Sequence record: AP029160.1
Direction: 5' to 3' (one strand)
Origin: a plasmid
Length of the DNA: 64,000 nucleotides
The notes beneath the pieces were generated by a model that was given only the letters and a program-made list of their open reading frames with translations, was not told the DNA's origin and did not search any database. Below, piece by piece: positions 4,675-40,166 of the stretch (position 1 is the first letter of the stretch; the number at the start of each line of letters is the position of its first letter). Made by a program: the position numbers and the translations under genes.

Positions 4675-4706
4675 ATAAACTCTTCTTTATAAAAATTTTC
4701 TAATTT

Positions 4707-9024: not shown

Positions 9025-9375
9025 GTTCTGTTGCAAAGATTTCAAAGTAACAAAGAACCTTGGAATTGATTTTCAAAACGACTATTCCAGACGCAATTAT
9101 CCAGCGAGGGAGCTAAATTGCTCCCAAATAGGCAAATGACTTTTAAATTTGAATTGCCCTTTTCTGAGCATATGATGGAGTTCAATACCTGTTAAAGTAG
9201 CTTTCGCCAATTTCAATGAGAAGAAACCAAACATAAGCTTCACTTTCTTTTTTATAAATCGATGGTCTTGTTCTACAAGATTATTTAGAGATTTATTTTG
9301 TCTTATTAAGATCTTATCTTCAGATTTAAGATCTTTGTTGATAACATTTAAAACTGCAAATACAAAAAATAAGTG
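9025..9375 (-). mobile_element. 3' remnant of a divergent IS6-family element
   Basis: GTTCTGTTGCAAA inverted repeat at 9025 and a transposase C-terminal coding remnant (...IWEQF.SLAG). It differs from the main IS6 copies in the subterminal region. Confidence 0.65.
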
Positions 9376-10522: not shown

Positions 10523-10987
10523 TTAATTCATAATTTTTAAAAAAAAATCGACTCTAATACAATTATCAGAAATAATTTCATAAAAATGAAAACCACTTTT
10601 TATTTTAACATTATTAATTTTAATATCTTTTTCAAGAGCAACTATATTTTGATTTTTAAAAAAATTTAATTTTTGAATTTTATCACTTTTTTCAGGATTG
10701 AATATAGTATCCTGAACAGCATCAAAATTCATTATAAAGAGCGATTTTTGATCTTTTCCATGCTCTTTATTTTTTGAATATTCTTTAAAAAATGTATTTA
10801 ATCTTTTATCTAGTTTTTGTTTTATATAATATTTTTTTATTGTTGGACAAGCGAGAAATATAAGAGTACCAACGGTTCCTATTGCAGCAACCCATGTTCC
10901 TATTGCGGTTATAAAATACCATGCGGTATCCCAAGTCCATTTTGAATCAATAATATGTTTAAATTGACAAAAAATATAATCAAACAT
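10523..10987 (-). CDS. membrane protein (start trimmed to internal Met to avoid overlap with the integrase)
   Basis: Predicted TM segment WYFITAIGTWVAAIGTVGTLIFLA. Lies downstream of the integrase. Confidence 0.3.
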   Translation of the reverse strand: MFDYIFCQFKHIIDSKWTWDTAWYFITAIGTWVAAIGTVGTLIFLACPTIKKYYIKQKLDKRLNTFFKEYSKNKEHGKDQKSLFIMNFDAVQDTIFNPEKSDKIQKLNFFKNQNIVALEKDIKINNVKIKSGFHFYEIISDNCIRVDFFLKIMN

Positions 10988-12014
10988 TTTTATCTCCTCT
11001 TTCTTTTTGATATTTAACTTTTCTTGCTGCACTTTCTTTTTCTTCATCGGTTTTCCGGATGTACATCATGGTGGTCATCATACTTTTATGACCAAGGAGA
11101 TCTTGAATTTCAGACAAGGGAACCCCATTCCTGTGAAGATGACTTGCAACAGTGGCACGGCAGGAGTGCGGGCTAATTTCTTTTGTAATTCCATGCTCAC
11201 GCGCAATACTTGTCACCATGCGCGCAAGGTAATCCCGATTGATTGGTTTTTTTGAGAACGGTGTAAGAGCAAAGAGAAAATCCTCTTTTTTAGCAAGAGG
11301 TCTTAAAGTAACAATGTAGCTTTTAAGGAGTGCGGCTAATTCATCACTTATTAAGGGAGCATGAATTTCTCCGCCTTTGATTTTCAAATGCAGCCTAGGG
11401 TATTTTCCTGTCAGGTCCAGATCTTTAATTTTGAGGGAACACAATTCTGTTGCTCTCATCCCTACGTGTGAGAGCGTGCTAAAAACGATGAAGCGAAGCC
11501 ATGCCCGATAATCCTCTTTTACTTTAAGAGGGTTTGTTGCTTTCTTATAGGACTCTTCGAGCGACTCTAAAATGCGAGCAATCTCTGCTTCTGATAATGC
11601 CTCTGTTTTCCCTTTAGATTTCTGTACTTTAGGCAAGCGTATGGCAGCCCCAGCATTTCTATCCACCCATCCTTCTTGAAACGAAAATTTAAGGAAGGAC
11701 AAAAGCGGAGAAAGCTTTGCGCACACCGAAGACGGCGGGTATGTGGCCAAAAGATAGCGTTTGTACGCATCCACATGATCTCGTTGAATTTCAGCGAGGC
11801 TTGCAAACGCAACCCCTTTTTCTAAACAAAATGCAAAAAAATCCCTTAAATGACGGGCATAATTTTGTCGTGTGTTATCACTTACATAACTGCCTAAAAA
11901 TCGAGCTTGTTTTAAGGCGATTTCAGGGGGGGATTTTTCAAAGTTGGTACTAGGAGACCCCCCAATTGAAGTTGAAGGTTGCTCTATGGATTGGCAATAT
12001 TGAGTTTCAGGCAT
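10980..12014 (-). CDS. tyrosine site-specific recombinase/integrase
   Basis: C-terminal catalytic signature HSCRATVASHL...LLGHKSMMTTMMYI (R..HxxR..Y). Confidence 0.85.
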   Translation of the reverse strand: MPETQYCQSIEQPSTSIGGSPSTNFEKSPPEIALKQARFLGSYVSDNTRQNYARHLRDFFAFCLEKGVAFASLAEIQRDHVDAYKRYLLATYPPSSVCAKLSPLLSFLKFSFQEGWVDRNAGAAIRLPKVQKSKGKTEALSEAEIARILESLEESYKKATNPLKVKEDYRAWLRFIVFSTLSHVGMRATELCSLKIKDLDLTGKYPRLHLKIKGGEIHAPLISDELAALLKSYIVTLRPLAKKEDFLFALTPFSKKPINRDYLARMVTSIAREHGITKEISPHSCRATVASHLHRNGVPLSEIQDLLGHKSMMTTMMYIRKTDEEKESAARKVKYQKERGDKNV

Positions 12015-12338: not shown

Positions 12339-12956
12339 ATGATTTCTTTCAAAGGAGAGAAAATGGAAAACCCAAAATCACCGTTTGCAATTGCTCACTA
12401 TATTTATAGCGAAATAAACAAAGGTAAATCCAGCCATACTCTTGAAAGAGAGCTTAAACTTAGTAAATACTATATAAATAAACATATTTGGCTCTGCACA
12501 TGGCCAAAAGAACTTGTTGATTCCTGTTTATTCTATCCTGATATTTTTACACCTCGCATTTTATTTTCCACATTTGCTTCAAGACAAAAATATTATTCAA
12601 AAAATGAATTTGAATACCTTAGAACAGAAATTGAAAAATTAATTCAAAAAGGTGCTAAACATAAGCCCAGGAAAGCAGTCAATTACCCCAAAATGAGGGC
12701 AGGCGGTTCTCTTATAACACAAAGAGTTAGAAAAGAAAATCTTAAAAAAATTGAAAAAGAATTAGCTATAAAAAAGAAAATAAATGAAGAATTGAAATTG
12801 AATTTAGAAGAACTTTTGTATTATCAACAGCAATTTAAAGAACTTCTTGGATTTCATGTTGTAGTACAATATTCTAAATCAAAACAAGAGGGAGAAATCA
12901 GAATCAACTTTAAAAATGAAAAAGATTTAGATTATTTACTCAGTAAAATGAACTAA
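12339..12956 (+). CDS. hypothetical protein (205 aa), possibly DNA-binding
   Basis: ORF track. Basic and lysine-rich. Located in the integrase islet. Confidence 0.35.
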   Translation: MISFKGEKMENPKSPFAIAHYIYSEINKGKSSHTLERELKLSKYYINKHIWLCTWPKELVDSCLFYPDIFTPRILFSTFASRQKYYSKNEFEYLRTEIEKLIQKGAKHKPRKAVNYPKMRAGGSLITQRVRKENLKKIEKELAIKKKINEELKLNLEELLYYQQQFKELLGFHVVVQYSKSKQEGEIRINFKNEKDLDYLLSKMN

Positions 12957-13014: not shown

Positions 13015-13650
13015 ATGCAAAATCAAGAAATATATCATTTCACACATAAAGATAATATTGTTTCTATTATTAAAAGTAATGGGATTTTTTCAACAAATAA
13101 TGGTAAAATAAATAAAATTGAATTTAAAGATGCTTCTTATCTTAATATTCAGGATCGAAGAAGTCGCGCTCTAGTCAATACAAAAATAAATGGTGTTTTA
13201 CATGATTATATACCTTTTTATTTTGCTCCTCGCTCTCCAATGTTATACGCCCACTATAAGAACAAAGTAACTTCTAAAATAAAACAGTCGGATTTGGTAT
13301 ACTTGGTATCTTCCATTGGTTCTGTGGTAAACGATAAATTAAATTATGCTTTTACTGACGGCCATGCTGCTCAAAACATATCTAGTTTTTTTGATGATTT
13401 AAAAGATCTCAATCAAATAGATTGGCCCCTGATGAAAGATAAAATGTGGAATAATACTTTGGAAGATACGGACAGGACAAGACGCAGGCAAGCTGAATTC
13501 CTGGTAAAAGATTTTTTTCCATTTCAATTAGTTCATAAAATTGGGGTCTTTGATGAAAGTAATAAAAAATACATTATATCCATTCTAAAAAATAATGATA
13601 AAGAAAATATGGTAAAACATGTTTTTATCGAACGTTATTGGTATTTTTAG
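13015..13650 (+). CDS. darT: DarT ssDNA ADP-ribosyltransferase toxin (DUF4433)
   Basis: YHFTH N-terminus, HDYIPFYFAPRSPMLY motif, RRQAEFLV catalytic-Glu motif. A macrodomain partner gene follows. Confidence 0.8.
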   Translation: MQNQEIYHFTHKDNIVSIIKSNGIFSTNNGKINKIEFKDASYLNIQDRRSRALVNTKINGVLHDYIPFYFAPRSPMLYAHYKNKVTSKIKQSDLVYLVSSIGSVVNDKLNYAFTDGHAAQNISSFFDDLKDLNQIDWPLMKDKMWNNTLEDTDRTRRRQAEFLVKDFFPFQLVHKIGVFDESNKKYIISILKNNDKENMVKHVFIERYWYF

Positions 13651-13659
13651 GGGGCAAAG

Positions 13660-14694
13660 ATGATTGAAAATAAATATGAAGATCTACTTGATAGCCAAAC
13701 TGAAGCTCTTGTAAATACTGTCAATTGCGTTGGGGTTATGGGGAAAGGGATTGCATTGCAATTTAAAAAAGCATGGCCAGATAATTTTAAAGCATACGCA
13801 AGTGCTTGTAAAAAAGGTGAAATACGCCCTGGAAAAATGTTTGTTTTTGAAACTAAAAACAAACTTATTATAAATTTCCCAACTAAAGTTCATTGGAAAG
13901 AAAAGTCAAAAATTGATTTTATTATAGAAGGTCTTGAAGACCTTGTTAAAGTTATTGAAAAATATAAAATTAAATCTATCGCTCTTCCTCCTCTTGGTTG
14001 CGGAAATGGAGGGCTGAATTGGAAAGATGTTCAGCCACTCATTACTAAAGCATTTAAATCATTTCCTGATGTTCAAGTTTTTTTATACCCCCCCGCTGAA
14101 AATCGAGTTGTAAAAAAAGTTTCTCTCCAGAAAGAAAATTTAAAAATGACTCCAGGGAGAGCAGCCTTATTATCATTAATGCATTTTTATCGTGGCGGAG
14201 CTTACCCACTGACTAAAATTGAAATTCAAAAGCTCGCTTATTTTTTACAGAACGCAGGTGAACCCTTGCGTTTAAAATATGAAAAACTCCACTTTGGACC
14301 TTATGCTGAGAATTTAAATCATGCTCTTCAAAATATGGAAGGTCACTTCATTCTTGGATTTGGGGATAGACAACAGCGTTCAGAGATTCGACCAGTAGCT
14401 CATGCTTTAGAAAAAGCTCATGAATTTCTTAGTGAGTATCCTGAAACTCGTGAAAGAATTCAAATTGTATCAAAATTAATTGAAGGATTTGAAGATTCAT
14501 TTGGTCTTGAACTTTTAGCAACAGTGCATTGGGTTCTGCAAAATGAACAAATATCACCTCAAACCATCGAAGAAACAACAAAACATATCCATCGTTGGAA
14601 TGAGCGCAAAAAATTAATTATAAAAGAATCACAAGTAGCTGTTGCTATGAAAAGATTAAGTGAACACAATTGGATCATTATTAATAAGAACTAA
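13660..14694 (+). CDS. darG: DarG antitoxin (N-terminal macrodomain)
   Basis: Macrodomain motifs NTVNCVGVMGKGIALQFK and ALPPLGCGNGGL. Begins 10 bp after darT. Confidence 0.8.
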   Translation: MIENKYEDLLDSQTEALVNTVNCVGVMGKGIALQFKKAWPDNFKAYASACKKGEIRPGKMFVFETKNKLIINFPTKVHWKEKSKIDFIIEGLEDLVKVIEKYKIKSIALPPLGCGNGGLNWKDVQPLITKAFKSFPDVQVFLYPPAENRVVKKVSLQKENLKMTPGRAALLSLMHFYRGGAYPLTKIEIQKLAYFLQNAGEPLRLKYEKLHFGPYAENLNHALQNMEGHFILGFGDRQQRSEIRPVAHALEKAHEFLSEYPETRERIQIVSKLIEGFEDSFGLELLATVHWVLQNEQISPQTIEETTKHIHRWNERKKLIIKESQVAVAMKRLSEHNWIIINKN

Positions 14695-15028: not shown

Positions 15029-15140
15029 AAAATTTGGGCGCAAATTAATTGAAATTATCGTTTTGCTTCGGCGCACATTAAATGAAAACGAGAGAATCTC
15101 GGCGCACGCTATTTGAAATCGGGCGCAAGATAATTGAATC
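15029..15140. repeat. GGCGCA-unit repeat element, copy 1 (4 units)
   Basis: Tandem units (G)GGCGCA(A/C)-AT-rich-TTGAA. A second copy at 46563..46648 lacks one unit. Confidence 0.5.
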
Positions 15141-17766: not shown

Positions 17767-18470
17767 TTAATCATTCACACATGTTCTGATTGTAAAAAAC
17801 ATTTTAATCTTTTCCATAAGGATCTTTTTACATAAAGATTCTGAAATAAATTGCTCTATTTGGTTTATTTGATTATCCAATAAAATTGAGAGAGGCTTTC
17901 CTAAATACATAGATATTGCTATTTTTGCATCTATTGGGTCTTTAAAAAATAATTCACTTTCATCATATTCTTTAAATGGAATAAATTTATCTACATTTTC
18001 TTCAATAAAACCTGTCTTCTTTATTACATCTATTATTTCTTTATCTTCACAATTCATTGTCATTATTGCTCTAGGAATTTTAATACTTTTTACTAAAGAA
18101 CTTATTTCTTCATCTTGTTTTTCATTTTTTGTTTTTTTAAATGAGCGATAAGTTCCTAATGGAATAGGATCTTCTGACTTATAAAAAGGACCAAATTTTT
18201 CACCATTAAATTCAGCATAAACTTCATAATCAAAAACTCCTACTAAAATTGTTACTATTTCTCCAGCCATTTCTGGTAATAATTGATATTGAATTCCATC
18301 TAATTTAATTCTTGCATCTGAGCTGACTTTTCTCTCAACTGGTTCACGCGCCATTTGACAAAATTTCTCCCAAGAACACATTTTGCTGTAACCTTTTTCA
18401 GGTAAGTTTAATTTGGGGTTATTTGCAAGAATCCCCGAGATTGTATACCAAAGCTGACTTATTATTGAAA
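17767..18470 (-). pseudogene. TniA-like transposase, C-terminal fragment only
   Basis: Aligns to the C-terminal ~235 aa of 37697..38893 (MCSWEKF...REPVER...LDGIQY). The N-terminal DDE core is missing. The ORF 5' end beyond 18470 is unrelated. Confidence 0.6.
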
Positions 18471-18542
18471 ATAGAGGATATCTTTGTTTTTGACGAGTAT
18501 AAAATCCAAGTACCTGCGTGAGAATCATAACGATGATGATTC

Positions 18543-21500
18543 TCACAGTTTATTTTTTACATGCTTTGATATTTTGTCCAAGTTTAATTTTCCTTCTTTT
18601 TTAGTGAACTCGAAGCGACCAAATAAATTGATGTGCTGCCAAGCTACAGGAGACATGGATTTTATTATATCTTCATTCCATTTTCCGTGTGCCATTAAAT
18701 TTGAAAATATAGATTCATTATAATAAATAATACAAAGCGTAATAAAACGAGCACAAGCATCCCAGACTTGCTGTTCTTCTTCTGTTTTAAATTTTAATTT
18801 ACCAAAATTTGCATACCCAACCGCTCGCTTTAATTGATGATAGCTTTCAACTCTGTTTAAAGCTTTTTGTACACCTTGTCTGAGTTCTGACGAATCTAAA
18901 TAGTCAAGCAAATAGATGCTTTTTAGAATACGATTATATTCCCATAAAGCATTTTTTGTTTTACTTTTATGAGTATGCGAGCTTATCTTTGCTGTTATTA
19001 TGCTCTGTGTAGTTTTTTTTATGCCAAGAGAATCATAATTTTTTGAATATTTTCCCATTCTTCAATTATAATTCTTGTATTAAATCTCTTTTTTGGTCTT
19101 AAATTTAAATGACTATAATCGCTTATATTTTTAAAAGACCCTATGGAATCAGTAAAAACATCATAAAAATCTTTATATCGGGGAGCGAATTGGTACCCAA
19201 ATGTATACAAAATTGCAAAATTTACATCATTAGTTCCATGTGTATCTGTTGAAAAAACTTCAGGATGAACGTCGCTTTTATTGCTAGATATTATATCATA
19301 AACATGATGGCTTTCATGATCATTTGCGCTAATTATTTTTGAATTAGTAGGAAGGATATTACCAACCATTGAATATGAAACAATACCTTTTTTTCGACCA
19401 AAATATTTAGGTGAATGTCTTGCATTAATAGTTGATACTTTTACCTCAAACTTTTGACCATCTCCAGCAAAATGAGCTAGCGAATTAATATGATACTTAG
19501 AAAAAATTGGTGATTTATAAATTTCGTTTGTGATTTTATCACAAGCATCTTTCACTGTTTCTAAGCGAATAAAGTTTTTTAAAGATGAGTATAAATTATT
19601 GTAAGAAAGATCTGAAACATCAGAAATTTTTTTAATACCCATATTAGTAGCTATAGCAATAATACAAGCAGTTATTGATTTTATATCTGCTTCTTCCTTT
19701 GTAAATCGACATAAAATATGCTCGAAACAGTCCATAATATTTGCGTTTTTTATGGCAAAATATATAACATCAATAAGATCTATTTGCTCCAATGACTCAA
19801 ATAAGTATTGGTTTACATCCTCAGATGATGAAGGAGTTTTTACATTCCATCTTGATTTTTTTAATGTTTTATTTTGTTCAAAATATATATTTTCACCTTT
19901 TTCAATTTTATTGTTTACCGTTATTAATTTTTTTTCGTATATTTCTTTTAGTTCATTTAGATGCTTTTCTGGTTTTTTATTGAAATTCTTTAGACCTAAT
20001 TCATGTATAAAATTATCTTTATTTTCCCATTCTTTATTTGTAACTAATTCACTTGCTAGGCTTTTATATTTTACACTATCCGAACAGTAAATAGAACCTG
20101 ATTCTAAATTTTCACAAATAAGCATATAGATCAAATATTCACATCGATCATAGCTGACTTTATTGTCATTAATTATATATTTTAAAAATTTTTTCGGTAT
20201 AAAATTTTCCTTAAATTCAAATATATTATTTTTATCTAAGTTCTTTTTTGATATGTGATTTTTTAATATATTCAACGCTTCTATCAATTTTGAGTTTTTA
20301 GATAAAAATTCAAAATCTATATTCATAATAATTGGTCTTAAATTTTTTTTAATTTTTTGATTTATTATTTCTATATATTCCCATTCAAATTCACTTTTAT
20401 CAAAACTTGCTTTATTTTCAATATAATCAGCAACAACTGCTAAAAGATTTTCCCTCAATAACGTAAAGGCTCTACCTTTTGTTTTTAAAAAAGTTTCGCT
20501 TTCAGGTATTTTTTTATCTAAAAATATTTTTAATATTTTACCTGCTTTAGGTACGTATTCATTCCCTTCTATCTTGTATTCTAGTATCTTTTCATCTGCA
20601 TAAAGCTTATATTCCGCTTCAAATAAATTTAAATTATACTTTAAAGCATTAATCATGTTATCATTATATTTATGAAATCTATGAAATAAAAAACAAATTA
20701 TATATAATCTTACAATTTTTATATCTCGAATATTTAATCTATATACAGAGTAAAATTCAACTAAAGAAGCATAATATTTTATACTTTCATTTGAAATCAT
20801 AAGTCTTGGAATTAAATTTTTTATTTTTATATAAAATTTTCTTATTTTACTACCTCTTATTATTTCTTCTTTTATTTCACCATATTTGAAATCTTTTGGG
20901 CTATGTTTTAGTGATGTAATTTCATATGTTTTATCTTGTTTTAGTTGTATTAATTTATTTAACTCATTTGAAAATCCAATATCTATATTTTCTTCAATAA
21001 TATTTATCAATCTTGATTCTTCTGAAAGCAATATTTTGCTTATAAAATCTTGCATGTATGAATATCTTGGAATAATAATTTTATTTTCATCCAAGAAATT
21101 AAAAAGTTCTCGAAAAATGTATTTTTGTTTTGCACTTATTTTAACTAGATTTAGTGCCTTTTCCTCTAATATTTCTAAATCTTTTTTATCAAAGTATTTA
21201 TACTTGAAAATATCTAATATTGTTTTTTTATTTTCAGTTGATGTTATTTTACTTACATCTTGTATTTTTTTTATACTTAAAATACTATTCTTAAAATGTT
21301 TCTCAACAATAAATTTAATATCTTCTTCAACTTCATTTAATTTAAAAGAAAAAAATCTATATTTAAATTTGAAATATCCCAATTGTAAAATAAAATTAAT
21401 TTTTGAATTTAAAATTCTGAGTTTATTTAAAGCAATATTTTCCTTGTGTGATAAATCAAAATAGATTTCTCTTTCTTCATCTGAAAATAGTGGTCTTTCA

Positions 21501-21595
21501 TAAATTAATTTAATTTCATCAGGTTTAAGAATAGTGAGTCGATTTGAATGGTGCTCACTTTCTTCTTTGTATTCATCATCAATTTCCAAAAGCAA
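18543..21595 (-). pseudogene. tnpA: Tn3-family transposase TnpA, split by a frameshift (858 aa + 171 aa ORFs overlapping at 19019-19058)
   Basis: The C-terminal ORF carries the Tn3 DDE C-terminal signature (RVESYHQLKRAV...INLFGRFEF). The two ORFs are contiguous, total ~1030 aa. Confidence 0.7.
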
Positions 21596-21609
21596 ATTCC
21601 TTATTTATT

Positions 21610-21715
21610 TTCTTAAAAAGTGTACTTTATGAGACATGCCCATTGACGTGTCTCAATAAATGTCTCAAAATACAGTTCTCATAAAGTCAAAGACATTTCG
21701 AGACATATTGGGGGC
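21610..21715. promoter_or_regulatory. res site between divergent tnpA and tnpR
   Basis: Multiple TGAGACA / TGTCTCA inverted half-sites (tgagacatgcccattgacgtgtctca ...). Confidence 0.5.
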
Positions 21716-21719
21716 AAAA

Positions 21720-22274
21720 ATGAGCATGATTGGTTATGCAAGGGTAAGCTCCACAGGACAAAGTTTAGATATACAAATGGAAAAGCTAAAAAGTTGTCAT
21801 AAAATTTTTAAGGAAAAAATAAGTGCTTCTTCTACAAAACGGGAAAAACTTGAAGCCTGCCTTGAATATCTTAGAGAAGGAGACACTCTCGTTGTTACTA
21901 AGATTGATAGACTTGCTCGTTCGACATGGCATTTATGCCAAATTACGAATGAGTTAGTGCGAAAAAAGGTTAATCTCCAAGTTCTTGATCAAAATATTAA
22001 TACAAATGACTCTTCTGGACGCTTGCTTTTTAATATGCTTGGTGCAATTGCTCAGTTTGAAACTGAGATTCGTTTGGAAAGGCAGATCGATGGAATCAAT
22101 AGGGCAAAAAAAAATGGCGTGCATTTTGGCAGACAAAAAAAATTAAATCCAAAAATAATTTTAGAACTTCAAAGTAAAAGAATTCAGATGATAAAAATTA
22201 AAGACTTAATGAAAGAATATGGATTGTCAAAAGCTAGTATTTATCGATATCTTTCTATTGACTTAAATAATTAA
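21720..22274 (+). CDS. tnpR: serine recombinase/resolvase TnpR
   Basis: MSMIGYARVSSTGQ N-terminus (catalytic Ser motif). GGGGG RBS. Confidence 0.8.
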   Translation: MSMIGYARVSSTGQSLDIQMEKLKSCHKIFKEKISASSTKREKLEACLEYLREGDTLVVTKIDRLARSTWHLCQITNELVRKKVNLQVLDQNINTNDSSGRLLFNMLGAIAQFETEIRLERQIDGINRAKKNGVHFGRQKKLNPKIILELQSKRIQMIKIKDLMKEYGLSKASIYRYLSIDLNN

Positions 22275-22366
22275 AGATTTAGGTTTTTCAATTTATTTAT
22301 TAAAGATACTTTAGTTTTTTAATTAAATTAAAGAAACATTAAAATTAACCTAAAGAGGAATAGCTT

Positions 22367-22658
22367 ATGCCTGAAATTAAATATAGAGAGACTACGCTGG
22401 AAGATTCCGATCAAACGGCATTAATAATGAAAGAAAACTGGGGTGGTGAACCTCTAATAGTCAGGACTAGAAGTTATTTCCCTAGTAAATTAAACGGTAT
22501 TATTGCTCAATCAGGTGAAAAATGGATCGGATTTTTATTTTACGATATTCGAGGGGATGATTGTGAAATTATTGTCTTTGAAGTTTTCGAAAAGTTTAAG
22601 GGAATAGGAACAAAAATCTTAGAACAACTTATAACAATTGCTCAAAATAAACTCTGCA
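22367..22658 (+). pseudogene. GNAT N-acetyltransferase, N-terminal half (interrupted by IS6 copy A)
   Basis: GNAT beta-strand pattern ...CEIIVFEVFEKFKGIGTKILEQLI. The ORF runs into the IS. The C-terminal half lies at 49503..49698 on the other strand. Confidence 0.7.
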
Positions 22659-23478
22659 GGTTCTGTTGCAAAAAATATATAAGTGAGAGTGGAGTAACTT
22701 TTTTTTGGAGTTGTTTGAGGGGAGTGGCGATGGATTTCAAGTGGAAGCATACTGATCGTATGATTATCATAATGGCAATCCGTTGGTATGTAGGCTACTC
22801 CCTAAGTTATAGGCAAGTAGAAGAACTTTTAGCAGAGCGTGGTATTTTTGTAGATCACACGACCATTCATCGTTGGATTGTGGAATACAGTCCAAAATTA
22901 CTTAAGAAGTTTTATAAGCTTAGAAAGCGTATCTGTGGAAGTTGGCGAATGGATGAGACTTACATCAAAGTAAAAGGTGAATGGTGTTATCTCTATAGAG
23001 CCGTGGATAAGCATGGTCAAACGATTGATATTTACCTTTCAAAACGAAGAGATACAACAAGTGCCAAACGTTTTTTCCAAAAATGCTTTCGTTCTTCTGG
23101 AATCCCAGAAAAGGTAAATATTGATAAAAGTGGCTCTAATACGGCAGCATTAAAGGCTATCAACAAAGATCTTAAATCTGAAGATAAAGTTCTAATAAGA
23201 CAAAATAAATATTTAAATAACCTTGTAGAGCAAGACCATCGATTTATAAAAAAGAAAGTAAAGCCTATGCTTGGTTTCTTCTCATTGAAATCGGCGAGAG
23301 CTACTTTAGCAGGTATTGAACTCCATCATATGCTCAGAAAAGGGCAATTCAAATTTAAAAGTCATTTGCCTATTTGGGAGCAATTTTGCTCCCTCGCTGG
23401 ATAATTGCACCTACAGAGGACATTCTTGAAAAGTAACAACCCAATGTTTCGTGGCTTCTAATTATTTGCAACAGAACC
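22659..23478 (+). mobile_element. IS6-family (IS26-like) insertion sequence, copy A, 820 bp
   Basis: 14-bp inverted repeat GGTTCTGTTGCAAA at both ends. 8-bp left flank ACTCTGCA. Confidence 0.9.
22730..23404 (+). CDS. IS6-family DDE transposase
   Basis: MDFKWKHTDRMIIIMAIRWY...DETYIKVKGEW.YLYRAVD. Resembles the IS26 Tnp. Confidence 0.85.
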   Translation: MDFKWKHTDRMIIIMAIRWYVGYSLSYRQVEELLAERGIFVDHTTIHRWIVEYSPKLLKKFYKLRKRICGSWRMDETYIKVKGEWCYLYRAVDKHGQTIDIYLSKRRDTTSAKRFFQKCFRSSGIPEKVNIDKSGSNTAALKAINKDLKSEDKVLIRQNKYLNNLVEQDHRFIKKKVKPMLGFFSLKSARATLAGIELHHMLRKGQFKFKSHLPIWEQFCSLAG

Positions 23479-23660
23479 CTAGGGACACCCCTAATAGGGA
23501 TGCCCTTTTTTTTGAGATCGGAATATTACACAAAAACACACGATATATCATATTAATATTATTAAATAATTAAATTTATTTATACTTATTTTAAATTTTT
23601 ATATTTAAATAAAATTTTATTCCGATAGGAAAATGTTCTTATAAAAAAGGAGACTCTCAT

Positions 23661-24428
23661 ATGTCTAAAAGGATAATCTTATTTACTTTTCTTTCTTTTA
23701 TCGTTTTTAGCTGCTCAAAAGGTGAAGGTGGAAGCATTGATAAAAATTCGTCAGATGCAACGGCTAATAACGATCTTTGTAAAATTCATTCAACAGCAAT
23801 AAATTCTAACGAAAAAATATCATATCAATACAATGCAATTAATTCACAATGGGAACTACTTCCAAGCTATCAAATTACACCTGATACAACACAAGTAAGT
23901 GGCACACCAATTCAATTAAGTCCAAACTCTCCAGAAATGATTATTAGTGGAAATGTTGGGCAAATTCCAAATGTCAACAATTTTATATCTTATACTTTAA
24001 GTAATAGTAATTTTGTTTATTTAACTAAATTACCTTCAATACCAACTGATAAAAGTATCGTTCAAGTAAATACAAACTCTAATTACATAGCAACAATAGA
24101 TTCAACATTATTTGGTGGTAATTTAGCTGACCTTAAAGGAAATGCTGGTAATTTATTTATCCATCATAGTGTAATAACTTCTCCACTCTATTTCATATAT
24201 GATCAAGCTTCACAGTCTTGGAGCCTTGTAAATAGTGTTTTAAATTTAATGGCAGGAAGTATTGCTCAATTGAATGGGCAATTACCAAGTGGAAACTTTA
24301 GTGCAATTAATTTTAGTTTATCTGCATATAGCTTTGTAACACCAGTGTATTTACCTAAAAATCCAATTGATAAAATGAAAATTAATATAATTAATAATAC
24401 GAATCAAAATGCGAATATTTGTTACTAA
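23661..24428 (+). CDS. lipoprotein (255 aa)
   Basis: Lipobox FSC after the signal peptide. Ser/Asn/Thr-rich. Confidence 0.55.
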   Translation: MSKRIILFTFLSFIVFSCSKGEGGSIDKNSSDATANNDLCKIHSTAINSNEKISYQYNAINSQWELLPSYQITPDTTQVSGTPIQLSPNSPEMIISGNVGQIPNVNNFISYTLSNSNFVYLTKLPSIPTDKSIVQVNTNSNYIATIDSTLFGGNLADLKGNAGNLFIHHSVITSPLYFIYDQASQSWSLVNSVLNLMAGSIAQLNGQLPSGNFSAINFSLSAYSFVTPVYLPKNPIDKMKINIINNTNQNANICY

Positions 24429-24504
24429 ATTACAAATAAATTTTTGCAAATAATTAAGAGTTACGAATCAGAGGTGTGTTACTTTTCAATTAGGTTCCAT
24501 TTAG

Positions 24505-25324
24505 GGTTCTGTTGCAAAAAATATATAAGTGAGAGTGGAGTAACTTTTTTTTGGAGTTGTTTGAGGGGAGTGGCGATGGATTTCAAGTGGAAGCATACTG
24601 ATCGTATGATTATCATAATGGCAATCCGTTGGTATGTAGGCTACTCCCTAAGTTATAGGCAAGTAGAAGAACTTTTAGCAGAGCGTGGTATTTTTGTAGA
24701 TCACACGACCATTCATCGTTGGATTGTGGAATACAGTCCAAAATTACTTAAGAAGTTTTATAAGCTTAGAAAGCGTATTTGTGGAAGTTGGCGAATGGAT
24801 GAGACTTACATCAAAGTAAAAGGTGAATGGTGTTATCTCTATAGAGCCGTGGATAAGCATGGTCAAACGATTGATATTTATCTATCAAAACGAAGAGATA
24901 CAACGAATGCCAAACGTTTTTTCCAAAAATGCTTTCGTACTTCTGGAATCCCAGAAAAGGTAAATATTGATAAAAGTGGCTCTAATACGGCAGCATTAAA
25001 GGCTATCAACAAAGATCTTAAATCTGAAGATAAGATCTTAATAAGACAAAATAAATATTTAAATAACCTTGTGGAACAAGACCATCGATTTATAAAAAAG
25101 AAAGTGAAGCCTATGCTTGGTTTCTTCTCATTGAAATCGGCGAGAGCTACTTTAGCAGGTATTGAACTCCATCATATGCTCAGAAAAGGGCAATTCAAAT
25201 TTAAAAGTCATTTGCCTATTTGGGAGCAATTTTGCTCCCTCGCTGGATAATTGCACCTACAGAGGACATTCTTGAAAAGTAACAACCCAATGTTTCGTGG
25301 CTTCTAATTATTTGCAACAGAACC
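24505..25324 (+). mobile_element. IS6-family IS, copy B, 820 bp
   Basis: Same inverted repeats as copy A. Confidence 0.9.
24576..25250 (+). CDS. IS6-family DDE transposase
   Basis: Identical family to 22730..23404. Confidence 0.85.
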   Translation: MDFKWKHTDRMIIIMAIRWYVGYSLSYRQVEELLAERGIFVDHTTIHRWIVEYSPKLLKKFYKLRKRICGSWRMDETYIKVKGEWCYLYRAVDKHGQTIDIYLSKRRDTTNAKRFFQKCFRTSGIPEKVNIDKSGSNTAALKAINKDLKSEDKILIRQNKYLNNLVEQDHRFIKKKVKPMLGFFSLKSARATLAGIELHHMLRKGQFKFKSHLPIWEQFCSLAG

Positions 25325-30763: not shown

Positions 30764-31171
30764 GTGAGATCAATTGTGAAGTTAATCGCAGTTTGCTCAA
30801 CATTAGCTTTGAGTCATCCAATATTTGCAAATACCAATATTGGTATTAATGTTGGTAATCATTACTTTGGTATAAGTCATTATCATAGTAATGGTGATCA
30901 TTATTATGGTGGTGGTGTCTACTTTGGAGGAAAATACTATGATGCGGTAGGTGGATATTACTTTAATGGTATTTATTATGATGCCTACGGCGGATATTAC
31001 TATAATGGTGGTTACTATACTTCTTCAGGAGTTTTCTTTGGAGGTATTGGTGGATATTATAAAGGAGGTCTCTTCTTCGATATTTATGGTGGATATTATA
31101 GTGTAGAAGGCTACTATTATGTCCCATATGGTGGTTATTACGATCAATATGGTATTTACCATGCTAGTTAA
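30764..31171 (+). CDS. secreted Gly/Tyr-repeat protein (135 aa)
   Basis: Signal peptide, then repeated GGYY / YYDAxGGYY units. GGAGG RBS. Confidence 0.5.
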   Translation: MRSIVKLIAVCSTLALSHPIFANTNIGINVGNHYFGISHYHSNGDHYYGGGVYFGGKYYDAVGGYYFNGIYYDAYGGYYYNGGYYTSSGVFFGGIGGYYKGGLFFDIYGGYYSVEGYYYVPYGGYYDQYGIYHAS

Positions 31172-31285
31172 TTCTGTTCTATTGCAAATAATTAAGAGTT
31201 ATTTTTAATTACAATGAAAACTCTTCTTTTGCTAGAATTTTGATCAGTATATCTGAAAAGCCCCAAATGTAGAAAGAGAAAAGCC

Positions 31286-31427: not shown

Positions 31428-32792
31428 CTAAAGGGAGCGAGCTTCTGAAGTCATAGGAATCAGCGGATTAGATTGCTCTAATCTCGTCTTACATATTCCT
31501 CGTCCAGCTTTACTTCGGCTAATTCCTAGCCTAGTTCTCGTCTTAGCTTTCGGCTTTGACAAAAGAAATTGAACACCTCTTTTTGCTATTATTTTTGCTG
31601 CATTGATATCAGCATTGTCATGATTTCCGCATAATAGACATAAGAAATTATCTTGTGTTTTTCTATTATCGGCGTGAGTGTGGCCACAATTGGCACATTC
31701 TTGACTAGAATAATGAGGTGAAACTTTTATAACTAATTTCCCATATTTTTTAGCTTTATATTCTAAAAATTCTATTGTTTTTGCTAATCCTTTAGAGAGT
31801 AATTCTCTATTTAACCCCGCCTTGGCCTTTCTCATATTTGGCAAATAATTTCCATTTTCATCTTGCTTTGGCTTAGGAGATTTTGTCATATTTTTTAGTT
31901 TTAAATCTTCTACTGCAAATATTTTTGCCTCAGAATTTGCAATAGAATGTGAGACTTTATGACAAAAATCATGTCTTATATTACTTATTTTAGAATGAAT
32001 TTTGGCAATTCTATTTTTTGTTTTATTTCTACTTGTAGATCCTTTTTTCTGACGTGCTAATTTTCTTTGGTATTTTTTTAACTTTTTTTGCTTAAGTTTA
32101 ATTTGATTTTTTAACTTATCATCGAAATCATAACAAGATTGATTGCTAGTTTGAAATGGAATTACGATACCTCGATCAATTCCAACGGTTAGAGTATTTA
32201 GTGATGTTTCATCTAAATTGGAATACTCATCCAATAATTCTTGCTCTGATTTTCCTGTATCTTCTACTTCATAACAGAAAGATACATACCATTTTTTATT
32301 TTTCTTACCAATTACAATTTGTTGAGGATTTCCAAATTCTCTATGCGCTTTAAATTTTAAAACACCCAAACTATTTTTCTTAGTACCAATTATAAGATTT
32401 TTTAAAACAACTCCATCATCGCTTATTTCATCTTTAAATTTAAATAATTCACTTGTAAGCAATACAGTATCTTTTATTCCTTTTTTCTTTTTGCGTGGAT
32501 TATTAGCTATTCCTTTAAAGAAACGTTGTTTTGCTGTATACCAAATAGAAGATGCATTACGCAAAACTTGAGAAGGACATTGATTTAACCACTCTCTTTC
32601 ATCATTTTTAAAATGAGAATAGGCTTGATTAATAGATATTTTATCGCCAGTACTTTTAAAAATGTTATAATTTTGATTATCTTCTGACACTTTGCAATTA
32701 TAAATTACTCTAGCACAACCTATCCATTGAGAAAGTATGTGAACTTGCTCAGCGGTTGGATATGCTCTAAATTTTACACCACAATTTGCCAT
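31428..32792 (-). CDS. tnpB: TnpB (RuvC-like RNA-guided nuclease, IS605 OrfB family)
   Basis: N-terminus MANCGVKFRAYPT, C-terminal zinc finger CANCGH...CLLCG. The 3' end overlaps the RE hairpin. Confidence 0.85.
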   Translation of the reverse strand: MANCGVKFRAYPTAEQVHILSQWIGCARVIYNCKVSEDNQNYNIFKSTGDKISINQAYSHFKNDEREWLNQCPSQVLRNASSIWYTAKQRFFKGIANNPRKKKKGIKDTVLLTSELFKFKDEISDDGVVLKNLIIGTKKNSLGVLKFKAHREFGNPQQIVIGKKNKKWYVSFCYEVEDTGKSEQELLDEYSNLDETSLNTLTVGIDRGIVIPFQTSNQSCYDFDDKLKNQIKLKQKKLKKYQRKLARQKKGSTSRNKTKNRIAKIHSKISNIRHDFCHKVSHSIANSEAKIFAVEDLKLKNMTKSPKPKQDENGNYLPNMRKAKAGLNRELLSKGLAKTIEFLEYKAKKYGKLVIKVSPHYSSQECANCGHTHADNRKTQDNFLCLLCGNHDNADINAAKIIAKRGVQFLLSKPKAKTRTRLGISRSKAGRGICKTRLEQSNPLIPMTSEARSL

Positions 32793-32839
32793 AAGTTCTC
32801 CTTAATGCTAATCTAGCATTCGTTTATTTTGGAGTCAAT

Positions 32840-33316
32840 ATGGATCATAAAAATTACGAGTGGAGAACAGGAAGAAGCCAAATATATAAGCATTATTATC
32901 ATTTAGTATTTGTTACAAAATACAGACGTAATGTTTTCACAAATGAAATACTTGAAAGAGTTAAAGTCATTTTTAAAGAAACATGTGAGCAAATTGATTG
33001 TGAGCTAATTGAATTTAATGGTGAAGATGATCATATACATATTCTTATCAGCATTCCTCCAAAACACTCTGTTGCAGTTGTTGTTAGTAAATTAAAAGGA
33101 AAATCATCATACTTTATTAGAAAAGAATTCTGGGATCATATTAAGAAAAAACTATGGGGAGAGCACTTCTGGAGCCCTAGTTATTGCTCTGTTACTTGTG
33201 GAGGAGCTCCTCTAGACGTCATAAAAAAATACATTGATGACCAAAGAAAGCCATCTTCTGAAAAAGGGGTCGCTCAATCAATTCGTGAAAGAAAAGTACG
33301 TTTGCGAGCGGACTAA
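32840..33316 (+). CDS. tnpA: IS200-type HUH transposase TnpA
   Basis: HxH motif DHIHILISIPP. Catalytic Tyr region WSPSYCSVTCGG. Confidence 0.85.
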   Translation: MDHKNYEWRTGRSQIYKHYYHLVFVTKYRRNVFTNEILERVKVIFKETCEQIDCELIEFNGEDDHIHILISIPPKHSVAVVVSKLKGKSSYFIRKEFWDHIKKKLWGEHFWSPSYCSVTCGGAPLDVIKKYIDDQRKPSSEKGVAQSIRERKVRLRAD

Positions 33317-36459: not shown

Positions 36460-36702
36460 ATTTTCATTGAAATTCTTGGTATATATTTCAAAAAGTATCT
36501 GATAGGTATCTGTTACGGCTCACGAACATCGGAGGGTCTGGATCGCAATCAAAGACAAATTGGGCTCAAATTAAATGCGAATACAAAACTCTTCAAACTC
36601 ACTTTAAATGCGAATGAGCTCATTCGCAAAGCACTCGGGATCGCAATCATCAACTTTGACTCACTTTAAATGCGAATGAAAAATTGCTTTAAAAGCAAAT
36701 TA

Positions 36703-37686
36703 TTATCTTGTTGCTCCAATTGTAATACCAAGATGCGTTAGCTCTTCATCAATTTCATGAGCTCTTCCAGCTGGTAATCTTCCTTTTTGATAATCTTTTA
36801 TTTCTGAAACAGATACTCCAATACTTTCTGATAGTCGACCTATTGGATAACCTTGTCGTGTTAATCGTGATTCTAAAGAATCAAAGTTTTTTCCAATTAC
36901 ATCACAAACCGTATTTTCTGAAATAGGTTTTTCAGCAGTTAAATATCCTTCTGATAAAACCCTCCATGTGTAACATTCCATTTCTAAAGGTGTTTTAAGC
37001 TTTGAAATAAGAGCTTTTCTAGCTCCAGCAGTGAAGATATCTGAGATTTTAACATTTGGTTCAAGACAAGAAGAAAGCATCCAATCAAAAAACTTTTCCT
37101 CACATCCATCAATTCCCTTCATAATAACATGCTGGGTTCGCATTCCTATTTCTTGCATAGATGCTCTGTGGAGTTCAAATTTTAATCTAGGATGCCCTAC
37201 AAGGACAATGGCAAGCCTTCCTCCAGCTTTGGAAATAAGTTCCATTAATCTTTTGAGTTCTATAAGTGTCTGCATTGGAAGATCATGTTCTTCGTCTATA
37301 AATATTGCTACGGGCACGTTACGTCTTGTAATCAACTTTTGTATTTGCCTCATTCTGAGCTCAGTACGCTTATGAAGAGTAATAGTGTCTTCATCTGCCA
37401 GATCTGCAACCATGGCATCGATTAAGGTATTTAAATTAACTTTATTTTTATCAATTGAAAGACTAGATACAACAAGGATGTTCCCCTCTTTCTCTAAATC
37501 GATCATTATTCTGTGTAGTGAGCTTGTTTTTCCCACCCCAATCGGACCTGTTAAAGCAATGAGATCTCCTGATGGCATATATTTTTTAAGATCTTCAAAC
37601 ATTGGACCATAGCTTTCATCCACAAAATATCCTGCATTTTTAAGTTCTTTTGTTAAGCCGTAGTATTGCATCATTTCAATTATCAT
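36703..37686 (-). CDS. tniB: TniB-like AAA+ ATPase
   Basis: Walker A GPIGVGKTS, Walker B IFIDEEHDL. Confidence 0.75.
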   Translation of the reverse strand: MIIEMMQYYGLTKELKNAGYFVDESYGPMFEDLKKYMPSGDLIALTGPIGVGKTSSLHRIMIDLEKEGNILVVSSLSIDKNKVNLNTLIDAMVADLADEDTITLHKRTELRMRQIQKLITRRNVPVAIFIDEEHDLPMQTLIELKRLMELISKAGGRLAIVLVGHPRLKFELHRASMQEIGMRTQHVIMKGIDGCEEKFFDWMLSSCLEPNVKISDIFTAGARKALISKLKTPLEMECYTWRVLSEGYLTAEKPISENTVCDVIGKNFDSLESRLTRQGYPIGRLSESIGVSVSEIKDYQKGRLPAGRAHEIDEELTHLGITIGATR

Positions 37687-37696
37687 TTTTACATCC

Positions 37697-38893
37697 TTAT
37701 GAACTTTCTTGCCTAAGATTTAGTTCCTGTTGAATCCATTCGAGGATTTTGTCTTTTTCTAAGGTCTTTGACAAGAAGCTATGAAGATCATTTAATTTTT
37801 CTAGAGATAGTTTTCCTAGTGGTATACCTATAGTGTGAGCAATGAACTTTCTTGCGGCATATTCTGAAGGGAATCGAATTTCGTTAAATGGGTCAGGATC
37901 AACAAAAGGACGCATACGGATGGTTTCTGAAGGTAAACTTTTATTTTCATTGTTTGCAGGAAGATGAATTGTATCCATAGTTTCTCTTGGTATAGATAGT
38001 TCGTTCGCTATTTTTTCTATTTTATCAATTCTTCTTTCAGCTTCTGTTTTTTTATAAGATCTGTATTTATTTAATTGCAACGGGTAGCCTGTTTGCTGGA
38101 AAGGGCCGTATTTTGCTCCTTCAAATTCTATAAAAATGTCCGTTTCTAATAAACCATTCCAAACAATTACTGTTTTTCCCATTAACTCATGATCAACGGA
38201 ATAAATAATACCATCAAGAGAAATAGTACAATCAGAATTCACTGTTCTTTCAACTGGTTCTCTAACAAGAGAAGAAAAGCGCTCCCATGAGCACATTTGT
38301 CGAATTCCTTCTTCAGGGATATTTTTAATCCAATCCTCAATTCGAGAGCATTCTTGGCTACGATGAGGCATCTGTGAATAGCGAATTAAAAACGGGAAAA
38401 GCCATTTATTAGCTTCTTTTTCATCTTTTGGTTTATGGAAATGGTATAAAGTTTCATGAAGCTCTTTGACAGTACGAAATGGTCTTTCAACTTTTCCCTT
38501 TGATCTTGCGGTAATTCTTCTACCATCCGAATTTCTAGGCATATGGCATCTCAATTCGATTCCTAAATTTTGCATCGCTCGTTGAAAAATCGCACTTTTT
38601 GCGATGGGTCCATTATCCATATAAATAACCTTTGGGATGCCTTGAAAAGGAAAATTCTCATTCTCTTTTTTTGACATAGCATTAAATAAAAACATTAATG
38701 CTGCAATAACATCTTCTCCATAAACAACATGATATTCTTGATAAGAAACTCCACTCCTGTCATCAACAACACTGTAAAGCATTAGTATTGCTTTACCATG
38801 CTTAGGATCCACCCATTCTGGCATTATTTCTATATATTTAAGTAGTTTTCGTAGATTAATTAAGGCTTCTTGTGGAATTAGTTTCCGATTCAT
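37697..38893 (-). CDS. tniA: TniA/MuA-like DDE transposase
   Basis: rve core VIYMDNGPI ... GKVERPFRTVK. Confidence 0.8.
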   Translation of the reverse strand: MNRKLIPQEALINLRKLLKYIEIMPEWVDPKHGKAILMLYSVVDDRSGVSYQEYHVVYGEDVIAALMFLFNAMSKKENENFPFQGIPKVIYMDNGPIAKSAIFQRAMQNLGIELRCHMPRNSDGRRITARSKGKVERPFRTVKELHETLYHFHKPKDEKEANKWLFPFLIRYSQMPHRSQECSRIEDWIKNIPEEGIRQMCSWERFSSLVREPVERTVNSDCTISLDGIIYSVDHELMGKTVIVWNGLLETDIFIEFEGAKYGPFQQTGYPLQLNKYRSYKKTEAERRIDKIEKIANELSIPRETMDTIHLPANNENKSLPSETIRMRPFVDPDPFNEIRFPSEYAARKFIAHTIGIPLGKLSLEKLNDLHSFLSKTLEKDKILEWIQQELNLRQESS

Positions 38894-39501
38894 GAAAACC
38901 CCACTAAATTTTTATTTAAAGCTTTAAAAGAAGAATAATTTTTCATTATATCATAATAAGTGCTTCTGGATATCCGAAATTTCTTGCAAAGATCGCTAAC
39001 TGTTCTTTCCCCTTTACAGGACTCAACTATCAAAGAGCTAATATCTAGTTCTCCCAATGCTTTAGGACGCCCCCTTCCTTTCATTTTTCCTTGTGCTTTT
39101 GCAATTGCAACACCTTCTCTTACCCTTTCGCAAATGATATCTCTTTCTAACTGAGCAAATACAGCCATGATTCCTACCATTGCTTGGCTAAAATGATCGT
39201 CTTTTGTGGAATCAATGGCTGGTTCAGAGAGCGATTTATAAGCTATTTTTCTTTGTGAAAGATCTTCTAGAGTCTTCATAATCCCAGAAAGCGTTCTTCC
39301 TAATCTATCAAGCCGATAGACAAAAAGAGTATCTCCTTTTTGTAACTTTGCTAAAAGGGACTTAAGTTGGGGCCTTTCCATGCTTTTTCCCGTAGCGACT
39401 TCTGATATGATTTCTTGGGCCCCAGCTGCTTTTAAGGCTTTAATTTGTAAAGATAAATTTTGATCTGAAGTTGAAATCCGAGCATAACCATAAATTCCCA
39501 T
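38890..39501 (-). CDS. serine recombinase/resolvase (start placed at MGIYGYARIS)
   Basis: GYARISTSDQ catalytic motif. C-terminal HTH. Confidence 0.75.
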   Translation of the reverse strand: MGIYGYARISTSDQNLSLQIKALKAAGAQEIISEVATGKSMERPQLKSLLAKLQKGDTLFVYRLDRLGRTLSGIMKTLEDLSQRKIAYKSLSEPAIDSTKDDHFSQAMVGIMAVFAQLERDIICERVREGVAIAKAQGKMKGRGRPKALGELDISSLIVESCKGERTVSDLCKKFRISRSTYYDIMKNYSSFKALNKNLVGFS

Positions 39502-39687
39502 TTTGGCCTCATTTTTTGGACAGGGTTTTTCGGACATAAAAAATCTAGTAAATTCAATACATGAAAACAAGTACTCTTGGTTGTAGTCAAAGATACCTCA
39601 TATTTTTTGAAATTGTTTCGAATATTTCTAATATTGCATTTATTTCGTTTATGTGGTAGAATATGCTGTGAGTTAAGAAAGGATATT

Positions 39688-40164
39688 ATGAAAATAAGCA
39701 CTCTAACATTGATAGAAGAATATACACCAACAGTTGAGGATACTAAAAAAGCTGAAATTGTAATTAAAGATATTTCTAATTTCAGTGAAAAGAAAAAGAT
39801 TAAAAATCTTGAGCTTGCGTTAAACTTCCAAGGTAATATAAAGAATTTACAACTTCCATTAAGTATTATGCCATTTTTAATGGATATATTAAATGAAGTT
39901 GCTCATGGAAATTCAGTTACTATTGTGCCATTTAATAAGGAATTTACAACGCAAGAAGCAGCGGATATTTTAAACGTATCACGCCCATTTATTATTAAAA
40001 TTCTTGAGTCAGGACAAATACCATTTCATAAAGTTGGTGCACACAGAAGAATCAAAGCAAAAGATATTATGGCATTCAAGAAAAAAATGAATAAAAAAAG
40101 TAAAGATGCACTTGAAAAATTGGCAAAAATTTCTCAAGAAGATAAACTTGGTTATGAAGACTAA
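39688..40164 (+). CDS. HTH (excisionase/MerR-like) DNA-binding protein, putative antitoxin
   Basis: FTTQEAADILNVSRPFIIKILESGQIPFHKVGAHRRI. Start at MKISTL with RBS. Begins 3 bp before the PIN gene. Confidence 0.5.
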   Translation: MKISTLTLIEEYTPTVEDTKKAEIVIKDISNFSEKKKIKNLELALNFQGNIKNLQLPLSIMPFLMDILNEVAHGNSVTIVPFNKEFTTQEAADILNVSRPFIIKILESGQIPFHKVGAHRRIKAKDIMAFKKKMNKKSKDALEKLAKISQEDKLGYED

Positions 40165-40166
40165 AA

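Follow-up and report, generated by a model that had tools for sequence, protein, structure and literature searches.

An IS-cargo-IS unit present twice on a plasmid

The DNA considered here is a stretch of 64,000 nt (the window) from a plasmid of Pigmentibacter ruber GTC16762 (record AP029160.1), in which a short cargo segment, bounded on both sides by directly repeated copies of an insertion sequence (IS) of the IS6 family, occurs twice. P. ruber belongs to the Silvanigrellaceae (Bdellovibrionota), an emerging group of human pathogens, and strain GTC16762 was obtained from blood in a case of necrotizing fasciitis (PMC11385108). Its genome was assembled by Unicycler from Oxford Nanopore Technologies (ONT) reads (N50 13 kb, 216x; run DRR523860) together with DNBSEQ reads (293x; run DRR523861), giving a chromosome and three plasmids (PMC11385108). 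The two units, A (22659-25324) and B (53193-55858), were each resolved by repeat search into an 820-bp IS, a 1026-bp interior and another IS of 820 bp pointing the same way, the bounding copies (A1 and A2 in unit A, B1 and B2 in unit B; Table 1) all lying on the + strand. A preliminary description of this DNA had claimed an exact 2.67-kb duplication, and pairwise comparison bore this out: the units are equal at 2666 of 2666 nt, with no divergence at any position, and the chance origin of an exact repeat of this length is far out of reach. Past the unit edges identity continues for only 1 nt leftward and 4 nt (CACT) rightward, beyond which the flanks are unrelated; recurrence 30.5 kb away with different outer flanks, as had also been proposed, is therefore what the sequences display, identity stopping at the outer IS termini. 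Within the 64 kb, only the IS copies and the cargo were found in duplicate by the repeat search, and the cargo segment of unit A has its sole other match in the window in the interior of unit B. A megablast search of the PLSDB plasmids with the unit as query returned no match.

The IS is intact and represents a hitherto unnamed member of the IS6 family. It is 820 bp long, ends in perfect 14/14 terminal inverted repeats (GGTTCTGTTGCAAA at both ends) and holds a single open reading frame (ORF) at IS positions 72-746, whose 224-aa product, read from ATG, matches PF13610 DDE_Tnp_IS240 (E=3.4e-45) as well as NCBIfam NF033587 (transpos_IS6, "IS6 family transposase"; 256 bits against a cutoff of 125). 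These matches agree with the earlier assignment of the two directly repeated copies round the 1026 bp to IS6. The motifs MDETY, NIDKSG and VEQDH are found in the translation, and we take them, by their likeness to Tnp26, to be the catalytic triad. Members of the family measure 789-880 bp and have inverted repeats with GG tips and cTGTt and caaa motifs (PMC7986276); the repeats of the present element show these features (GG...CTGTT...CAAA), so that transposase type, length with a single ORF, repeat motifs and an 8-bp target duplication, described below, all place it in the family. We call it unnamed because the nearest plasmid-borne transposases (Legionella, Yersinia, ISEas1-type) reach 54-59% protein identity at most, and because the only close relatives of the IS among contigs taken from one genome per species were in a Silvanigrella metagenome-assembled genome (71-94%, partial matches at contig ends). 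The IS6 copies of the Bacillus cereus group are about 37-56% identical to it. The same scan of one representative per species returned no locus for the IS from the P. ruber representative genome, and in exact-protein look-ups both transposase forms, as well as the truncated transposase of copy E, were on no record.

Six full copies of the IS, one truncated copy (E) and four remnants make up its census in the window. Copies A1, B1 and D are identical (variant 1), as are A2 and B2 (variant 2). The two ISs that bound one unit are thus unequal, and they are unequal by a pattern common to both units: the types differ at 13 sites, all within IS positions 275-602, are equal over positions 1-274 and 603-820, and encode transposases 3 residues apart. 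Together with variant 3, represented by copy C3, which lies outside any unit, the IS variants are mosaics of each other. At 31171-31201 an isolated remnant of an IS6-type terminal repeat, about 31 bp long, has 20 nt identical to remnant F, which suggests that an older, approximately 80% related IS6 lineage was present on the replicon.

The preliminary description had placed a hairpin with a T-run and a gene for a 255-aa lipoprotein inside the unit, and both are there. Directly past the IS right end lies a terminator-like hairpin (an interrupted 10-bp stem) followed by T8 (23481-23513, + strand), for which the 61-nt stretch 23470-23530 gave a minimum free energy of -14.5 kcal/mol and a z of -1.9; an AT-rich spacer, a ribosome-binding site (RBS; AAGGAG), the 255-aa ORF, 8 bases, remnant F and finally A2 follow in this order. 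The protein has a signal peptide and a lipobox (MSKRIILFTFLSFIVFSC; …IVFSC), judged by eye. A word-indexed search of 5.8 billion proteins returned the protein itself alone (hypothetical protein, P. ruber GTC16762), and HMMER, run exhaustively against 1.84 billion representatives, gave one further match, at E=3.5e-4, to a protein of 809 aa in which a reprolysin domain is combined with six beta-sandwich repeats of the StcE type. The match to Pfam PF20944 StcE_b-sandwich is marginal (29.1 bits against a cutoff of 27), that to the NCBIfam CpaA N-terminal repeat region is weak (E=2e-10), and the AlphaFold2 single-sequence model was uninformative (mean pLDDT 32). We read the cargo product as a predicted stand-alone surface lipoprotein with a beta-sandwich of the mucinase-accessory type and without a catalytic domain. 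Being strain-specific, without detectable homologues and present in two copies, the cargo is a candidate recently acquired surface factor of this necrotizing-fasciitis isolate.

Table 1. IS copies, cargo segments and associated features of the window; 8-bp flanks are given in the orientation of the IS
Feature	Position	Strand	Left flank	Right flank	Remarks
GNAT gene, 5' part	22367-22658	+			split by IS
Target ACTCTGCA	22651-22658	+			left end of A1
IS copy A1	22659-23478	+	ACTCTGCA	cargo	variant 1; tnp ORF 22730-23404 (224 aa from ATG); identical to B1 and D
Cargo of unit A	23479-24504	+			1026 bp
Lipoprotein gene	23661-24428	+			255 aa; RBS AAGGAG; lipobox VFSC
Remnant F	24437-24504	-			68 bp, about IS positions 753-820 (right end), inverted; from an older IS6 element about 80% related; cut by A2
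IS copy A2	24505-25324	+	cargo	CACTTATA	variant 2; 13 nt and 3 aa different from A1
IS copy C3	28282-29101	+	AGAAGGTG	GTTATACT	variant 3; 9 differences, positions 33-232; outside any unit
GNAT gene, 3' part	49503-49698	-			includes 8-bp duplicate
Target ACTCTGCA, second copy	49691-49698	-			right end of D; reverse complement on + strand
IS copy D	49699-50518	-	CATTAGCA	ACTCTGCA	variant 1, identical to A1 and B1; partner of A1 in inversion
Segment Z	50519-53192				2.67 kb; tnpA C-terminal fragment (Tn3-type), orf162, methyltransferase, resolvase fragment
IS copy B1	53193-54012	+	AGTTAGGA	cargo	variant 1; left end truncates resolvase fragment 52989-53192
Cargo of unit B	54013-55038	+			contains lipoprotein gene 54195-54962
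IS copy B2	55039-55858	+	cargo	CACTGATC	variant 2; identical to A2
B2/E junction					sequence AACAGAACCCACTGATCG
IS copy E, truncated	55860-56587	+	truncated	CTTTAGAT	IS positions 93-820; abuts B2 right end
Older IS remnant	9025-9357
Older IS remnant G	46221-46562
Older IS remnant	59390-59586

A split GNAT gene and a 26.2-kb inversion

Direct duplications of 8 bp were sought round each unit and among all cross-pairs of IS flanks. Neither unit is flanked by one, and the only pair that agreed at 8/8 among all the IS copies was A1-left with D-right. Two further resemblances, A2-right with B2-right (CACTTATA vs CACTGATC, 6/8) and D-left with B1-left (5/8), were treated as chance, and an 826-nt inverted repeat that seemed to run 6 nt past the IS was set aside, its extension matching at 5/6 only.

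The A1/D pair splits a GNAT gene. When 22367-22658 is joined to the reverse complement of 49690-49503, a 159-aa ORF is restored, with a complete Acetyltransf_1 match and full-length 100% identity to a database protein (P0003). In one of the contigs that carry this protein (L041, run DRR420811), the first 4274 nt equal window 18385-22658 at 100% identity and the rest equals, again at 100%, the reverse complement of window 49698-46573, the 8-bp overlap ACTCTGCA being present once. Contig L041 is thus the empty site, in the un-inverted gene order tnpA, tnpR, GNAT, MCP, SBP. From this empty, un-inverted arrangement it follows that in GTC16762 the IS was copied into GNAT, generating the 8-bp duplication, and that the segment from A1 to D (23479-49698; 26,220 bp) was inverted; one of the units was carried off by this IS-mediated inversion. 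The IS has moved recently in the GTC16762 lineage.

A1 appears to have arisen when the IS now at D, whose right end already stood at the cargo, gained a second copy within GNAT. Such a structure, an inversion with reverse-complement copies of the target, is the predicted, textbook product of intramolecular replicative transposition in its inversion mode (PMC7986276). A simple insertion, followed by recombination with the inverted IS, would lead to the same end structure by one more step, and the single-step route is the one that we infer. Since the IS at D abutted the cargo by its right end before either route, undoing the inversion gives the pre-inversion order, which would have been GNAT … istA' – A2(-) – cargo(-) – IS(-) – Z – B1(+) – cargo(+) – B2(+) – E. 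In this order the units would formerly have been mirror images, each lying outward of segment Z, past the right end of one of the two identical inverted ISs that flanked it. We also considered, and rejected, an intramolecular inversion in which the entire composite behaved as a single long IS: this predicts that A2-right equals B1-left or that B2-right equals D-left, and neither is the case.

Other ends of the ISs meet interrupted genes or elements. The right end of A2 lies against internal istA sequence of the IS21 family, that of B2 against position 93 of copy E, B1 cuts a resolvase fragment and D cuts a Tn3-type tnpA fragment, and all of these junctions look like products of the IS-mediated adjacent-deletion type. 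In exact-protein look-ups the IstA and IstB fragments and orf208 were on no record.

Run DRR420811 (Logan contigs L041, L048, L050 and L052) stems from a near-identical relative, with 0 mismatches in 7.4 kb and 3 in 6.4 kb. The relative has the same resolvase-fragment/IS junction (53192/53193) that forms the left junction of unit B, and it contains the DNA lying right of E; the inverted IS at the left of Z abuts 51426 there, not 50519, and the tnpA fragment is gone, which looks like a further adjacent deletion, of 907 bp. Protein searches recorded the cargo protein from GTC16762 only, with no record from DRR420811. On the simplest reading, the inner ISs would be older than the cargo at both sites. 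GTC16762 and DRR420811 form a natural before-and-after pair (empty target, un-inverted backbone, no recorded cargo), which helps to date and order the IS events.

Some smaller observations concern the same regions. The short-read graph of GTC16762 (contigs L049 and L055 of DRR523861) breaks at the 30-mer 51401-51430, although this is unique in the window; the break is 25 nt from the IS junction site of the relative (51426) and may be due to a minor structural variant among the cultured cells or to a further copy of the sequence somewhere else in the genome. At 15032-15076 and 46564-46610 a stretch of some 45 nt is directly repeated with one mismatch, both times 150-200 nt from SBP_bac_3 genes; its second copy adjoins the left end of remnant G, and contig L041 of the relative ends inside it. 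The cargo opens with a 12-nt motif, TAGGGACACCCC (23480-23491 and 54014-54025), a third copy of which (46209-46220) adjoins the break point, at IS position 338, of remnant G; the DRR420811 contig that matches this region ends exactly before the motif, which may mark the terminus of some other element or else a hairpin hotspot. The possibility that the motif at the cargo start and at 46209-46220 (GGGGTGTCCCTA) is a Tn3-type terminal repeat was dismissed, the known Tn3 ends in the window being without it.

The split GNAT gene is itself the passenger of a Tn3-family transposon (18414-22658 plus 49377-49698) with a frameshifted tnpA (18543-21595) and a tnpR, whose terminal repeats of about 80 bp (18414-18493 and 49377-49456) are 85% identical. 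Its tnpR-GNAT-end module is found, at 99.7-100% identity, in several unrelated metagenome contigs (among loci L038-L047); L038-L040 also have TrwC-type relaxase genes, and L038 has downstream conjugation-type genes as well.

Elsewhere in the window there are further mobile and defence-related features. A type II-C-like CRISPR-Cas locus (2255-8857) comprises cas9 (5594-8857, - strand; 1087 aa, with RuvC_III, HNH and Cas9_a domains), probable cas1 (4707-5597, -) and cas2 (4321-4674, -) genes, the latter two assigned by size and position only, and an array (2255-4270) of about 31 repeats of 36 nt with a period of 66. The gene pair at 13015-14694, encoding DarT (PF14487, E=3e-56) and a macro-domain DarG-like protein, is a DNA ADP-ribosylating toxin-antitoxin or defence module, and adjoins a ParB-like gene (12339-12956) and a tyrosine integrase gene (10980-12014). 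An IS200/IS605-type pair (31428-33316) consists of tnpB (454 aa, -; OrfB_IS605 and a Cas12f-like TNB domain) and a Y1 tnpA (158 aa, +). Finally, 182-bp inverted repeats (91% identical) enclose genes for an AAA_22 ATPase, a Mu-type transposase-like protein, a serine resolvase, and HTH and PIN proteins at 36507-40980, which is probably another transposon.

Origin of the two units

The preliminary description had interpreted the locus as an IS26-type pseudo-compound transposon or translocatable unit (TU) that had moved a non-resistance cargo, and this interpretation is supported by the direct IS6 pair, by the ends of the block, which fall at IS termini, by the recent movement of the IS and by the lack of any record of the cargo gene elsewhere, the closest relative sample included. 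A pseudo-compound transposon is a segment between two directly oriented IS26-type copies, and this is what each of the units is. In addition, the equal block stands at two loci with four different outer flanks, so that the segment was relocated as a unit; this covers the relocation itself, while its route has to be deduced. Our results support several refinements of the earlier interpretation: (i) there is no 8-bp duplication round either unit; (ii) the bounding ISs are two variants; and (iii) the direct arrangement over 30.5 kb is secondary to the 26.2-kb inversion. Taken together, the locus is a real two-copy structure of the pseudo-compound-transposon kind, built by an active IS6/IS26-type IS.

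As for how the cargo reached its two sites, we consider it rather probable that a TU made of a variant-2 IS and the cargo joined variant-1 ISs that were already in place, leaving aside whether transposase or RecA was the catalyst. A circle of one variant-2 IS and the 1026-bp cargo (1846 bp) would join each resident variant-1 IS, and an exchange within the identical right-terminal 218 bp would yield the order variant 1, cargo, variant 2 each time. The incorporation would add no target duplication, the resident IS would keep its flanks, and catalysis could be provided either by the transposase, through IS26-style targeted conservative cointegration, or by RecA, through recombination of the circle into the IS. 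The outcome would be two copies of an orphan surface-lipoprotein gene, each with its own upstream region and with a hairpin that would shield it from IS read-through. The lack of a flanking duplication, the non-identical bounding ISs and the identical IS ends are all consistent with this TU pathway. By contrast, untargeted copy-in of a TU with one IS is expected from IS26 biology (PMC8722046) to leave a target duplication and a pair of identical ISs, and we rejected it, as the bounding ISs differ at 13 sites and the 8-bp duplication is absent; the presence of two variants argues against untargeted copy-in and for incorporation at pre-existing ISs. The targeted reaction is catalysed by the transposase in IS26 and a few relatives, and the DNA of the reacting ends must be identical (PMC7885326; PMC8722046); between the two variants the ends are identical over 274 bp at the left and over 218 bp at the right. 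Excision and re-integration by RecA would lead to the same product, provided that both crossovers missed the variable core; a rough calculation based on how long the identical end segments are puts this at about one case in five, and the RecA route is therefore kept.

Several points weigh against this history. The perfect identity of both unit copies is partly a product of the assembly method: Unicycler uses one graph node for every repeat, and the finding of zero differences is therefore weaker evidence than it appears. The TU or cointegrate route is inferred from the structure, and neither a circular TU nor a cointegrate was observed. The IS26 experiments required identical transposases, though the pairs tested were 84-93% identical (PMC7885326), and the transposases of variants 1 and 2 differ at 3 residues; moreover, targeted conservative activity is known only for few members of the IS26 family (PMC8722046), and the transposase of the present IS is at most 59% identical to any plasmid-borne relative. 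The pre-existing ISs would themselves be without target duplications, so that earlier deletions or inversions must be assumed. Finally, the absence of the cargo from DRR420811, a short-read sample, could be a loss by IS-IS recombination.

Incorporation of a TU at resident ISs has to be weighed against other ways of obtaining two equal units. It is possible, if unlikely, that the whole IS-cargo-IS block moved, through a copy-in cointegrate formed by one bounding IS at a new target and resolved by homologous recombination of IS copies, the 8-bp duplication having been erased later by other deletions or inversions due to the IS. Behaviour of the copy-in type is indeed seen in this IS (the 8-bp duplication and the inversion), the route by cointegrate and resolution is that of PMC7986276, and IS-truncated genes are so abundant (B2/E position 93, A2/istA, D/tnpA) that the later erasure of flanks is plausible. 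However, not one matching flank pair is left at either unit, and the resolving crossover would have had to miss positions 275-602 in order to keep the 13 variant sites. In addition, the left junction of unit B occurs in the relative without recorded cargo and thus predates the cargo there, unless the relative lost it. IS6 elements also fuse replicons (PMC7986276), and the window is a mosaic of Tn3, IS21, IS200/605 and IS6 remnants, so that the cargo might never have moved as a small segment: a plasmid dimer, or a cointegrate of sister or related plasmids with one unit each, might have been reduced by later deletions. Against this replicon-level event, which we hold to be highly improbable, the 64 kb contain no duplicated sequence besides the IS copies and the cargo, and as identity ends at the IS tips on four sides, all other duplicates would need to have been trimmed exactly.

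A still slimmer chance is that there is one cargo per molecule and that the second unit was produced by the assembly, either because a repeat node was threaded twice or because structural isomers present in the population were merged. The final Unicycler sequence derives from short-read graph nodes, which makes repeat copies identical by construction, and DNA lying between inverted IS copies can flip in a culture. The Logan short-read assembly of GTC16762 likewise folds the cargo into one collapsed contig of 1055 bp ending in IS sequence, although this is what is expected if every cargo copy is bounded by ISs. The four outer junctions, however, are distinct, each of them an ordinary IS junction, and IS variants only a few single-nucleotide polymorphisms apart were placed at specific positions. 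With an N50 of 13 kb, easily longer than the 2.67-kb unit, the ONT reads at 216x span the unit and its flanks many times, making a false duplication unlikely.

Relation to known mobile elements

These results extend IS26-style shuffling (pseudo-compound transposons, replicative inversions and adjacent deletions) to the Silvanigrellaceae and to a cargo other than an antibiotic resistance gene. The known workings of the IS6-family elements are unchanged by them, and specialists in mobile elements will find little to surprise them. It is conceivable, but doubtful, that the 1846-bp IS plus cargo is an actively amplifying TU that raises the dosage of the surface lipoprotein (StcE/CpaA-like beta-sandwich) in a blood-invasive isolate. 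If this were true, IS26-style amplification would be acting on a host-interaction gene, not on a resistance gene, and the targeted conservative reaction would work in an IS6 lineage distant from IS26. To our knowledge, IS26-style amplification has never been examined in the phylum to which P. ruber belongs.

Among known systems, the compound transposons Tn5, Tn10 and Tn9 likewise have a cargo between two IS copies. There, however, the transposase acts on the outer ends of the composite and leaves a target duplication, whereas none is found at either P. ruber unit, and we know of no IS6-family element that moves in their manner. The Gram-positive members of the IS26 family (IS257/IS431, IS1216 and ISS1) resemble the 820-bp P. 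ruber IS in build, as they measure about 0.8 kb and encode a single DDE transposase; the start of the terminal repeat (GGTTCTGTTGCAAA) presumably resembles theirs too.

The closest parallels are with IS26, whose family's pseudo-compound transposons and TU biology agree with the P. ruber structure in all features that could be checked. As in its inversion-mode transposition (PMC7986276), A1 and D are identical and inverted round the segment between them, and the target is found once at each junction, as reverse complements; in P. ruber the single step is the proposed route, and insertion followed by recombination would end alike. As in IS26 TU biology, no target duplication accompanies the joining of an existing IS, and neighbouring genes are truncated by junctions of the adjacent-deletion type, the difference being that for the P. 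ruber IS the targeted conservative reaction is proposed from sequence alone. The IS26 pseudo-compound transposons of the Tn4352 type (Harmer, Moran and Hall 2014; Harmer, Pong and Hall 2020), cited in PMC8722046, differ from the present units in their cargo, here an orphan lipoprotein gene, in the host, here one of the Bdellovibrionota, in the transposase, here at most 59% identical, and in the presence here of two IS variants. With them, nevertheless, the P. ruber units share their basic design, in which two direct copies of an IS6/IS26-type element stand round a short cargo and the whole block recurs with its breakpoints at the tips of the ISs.

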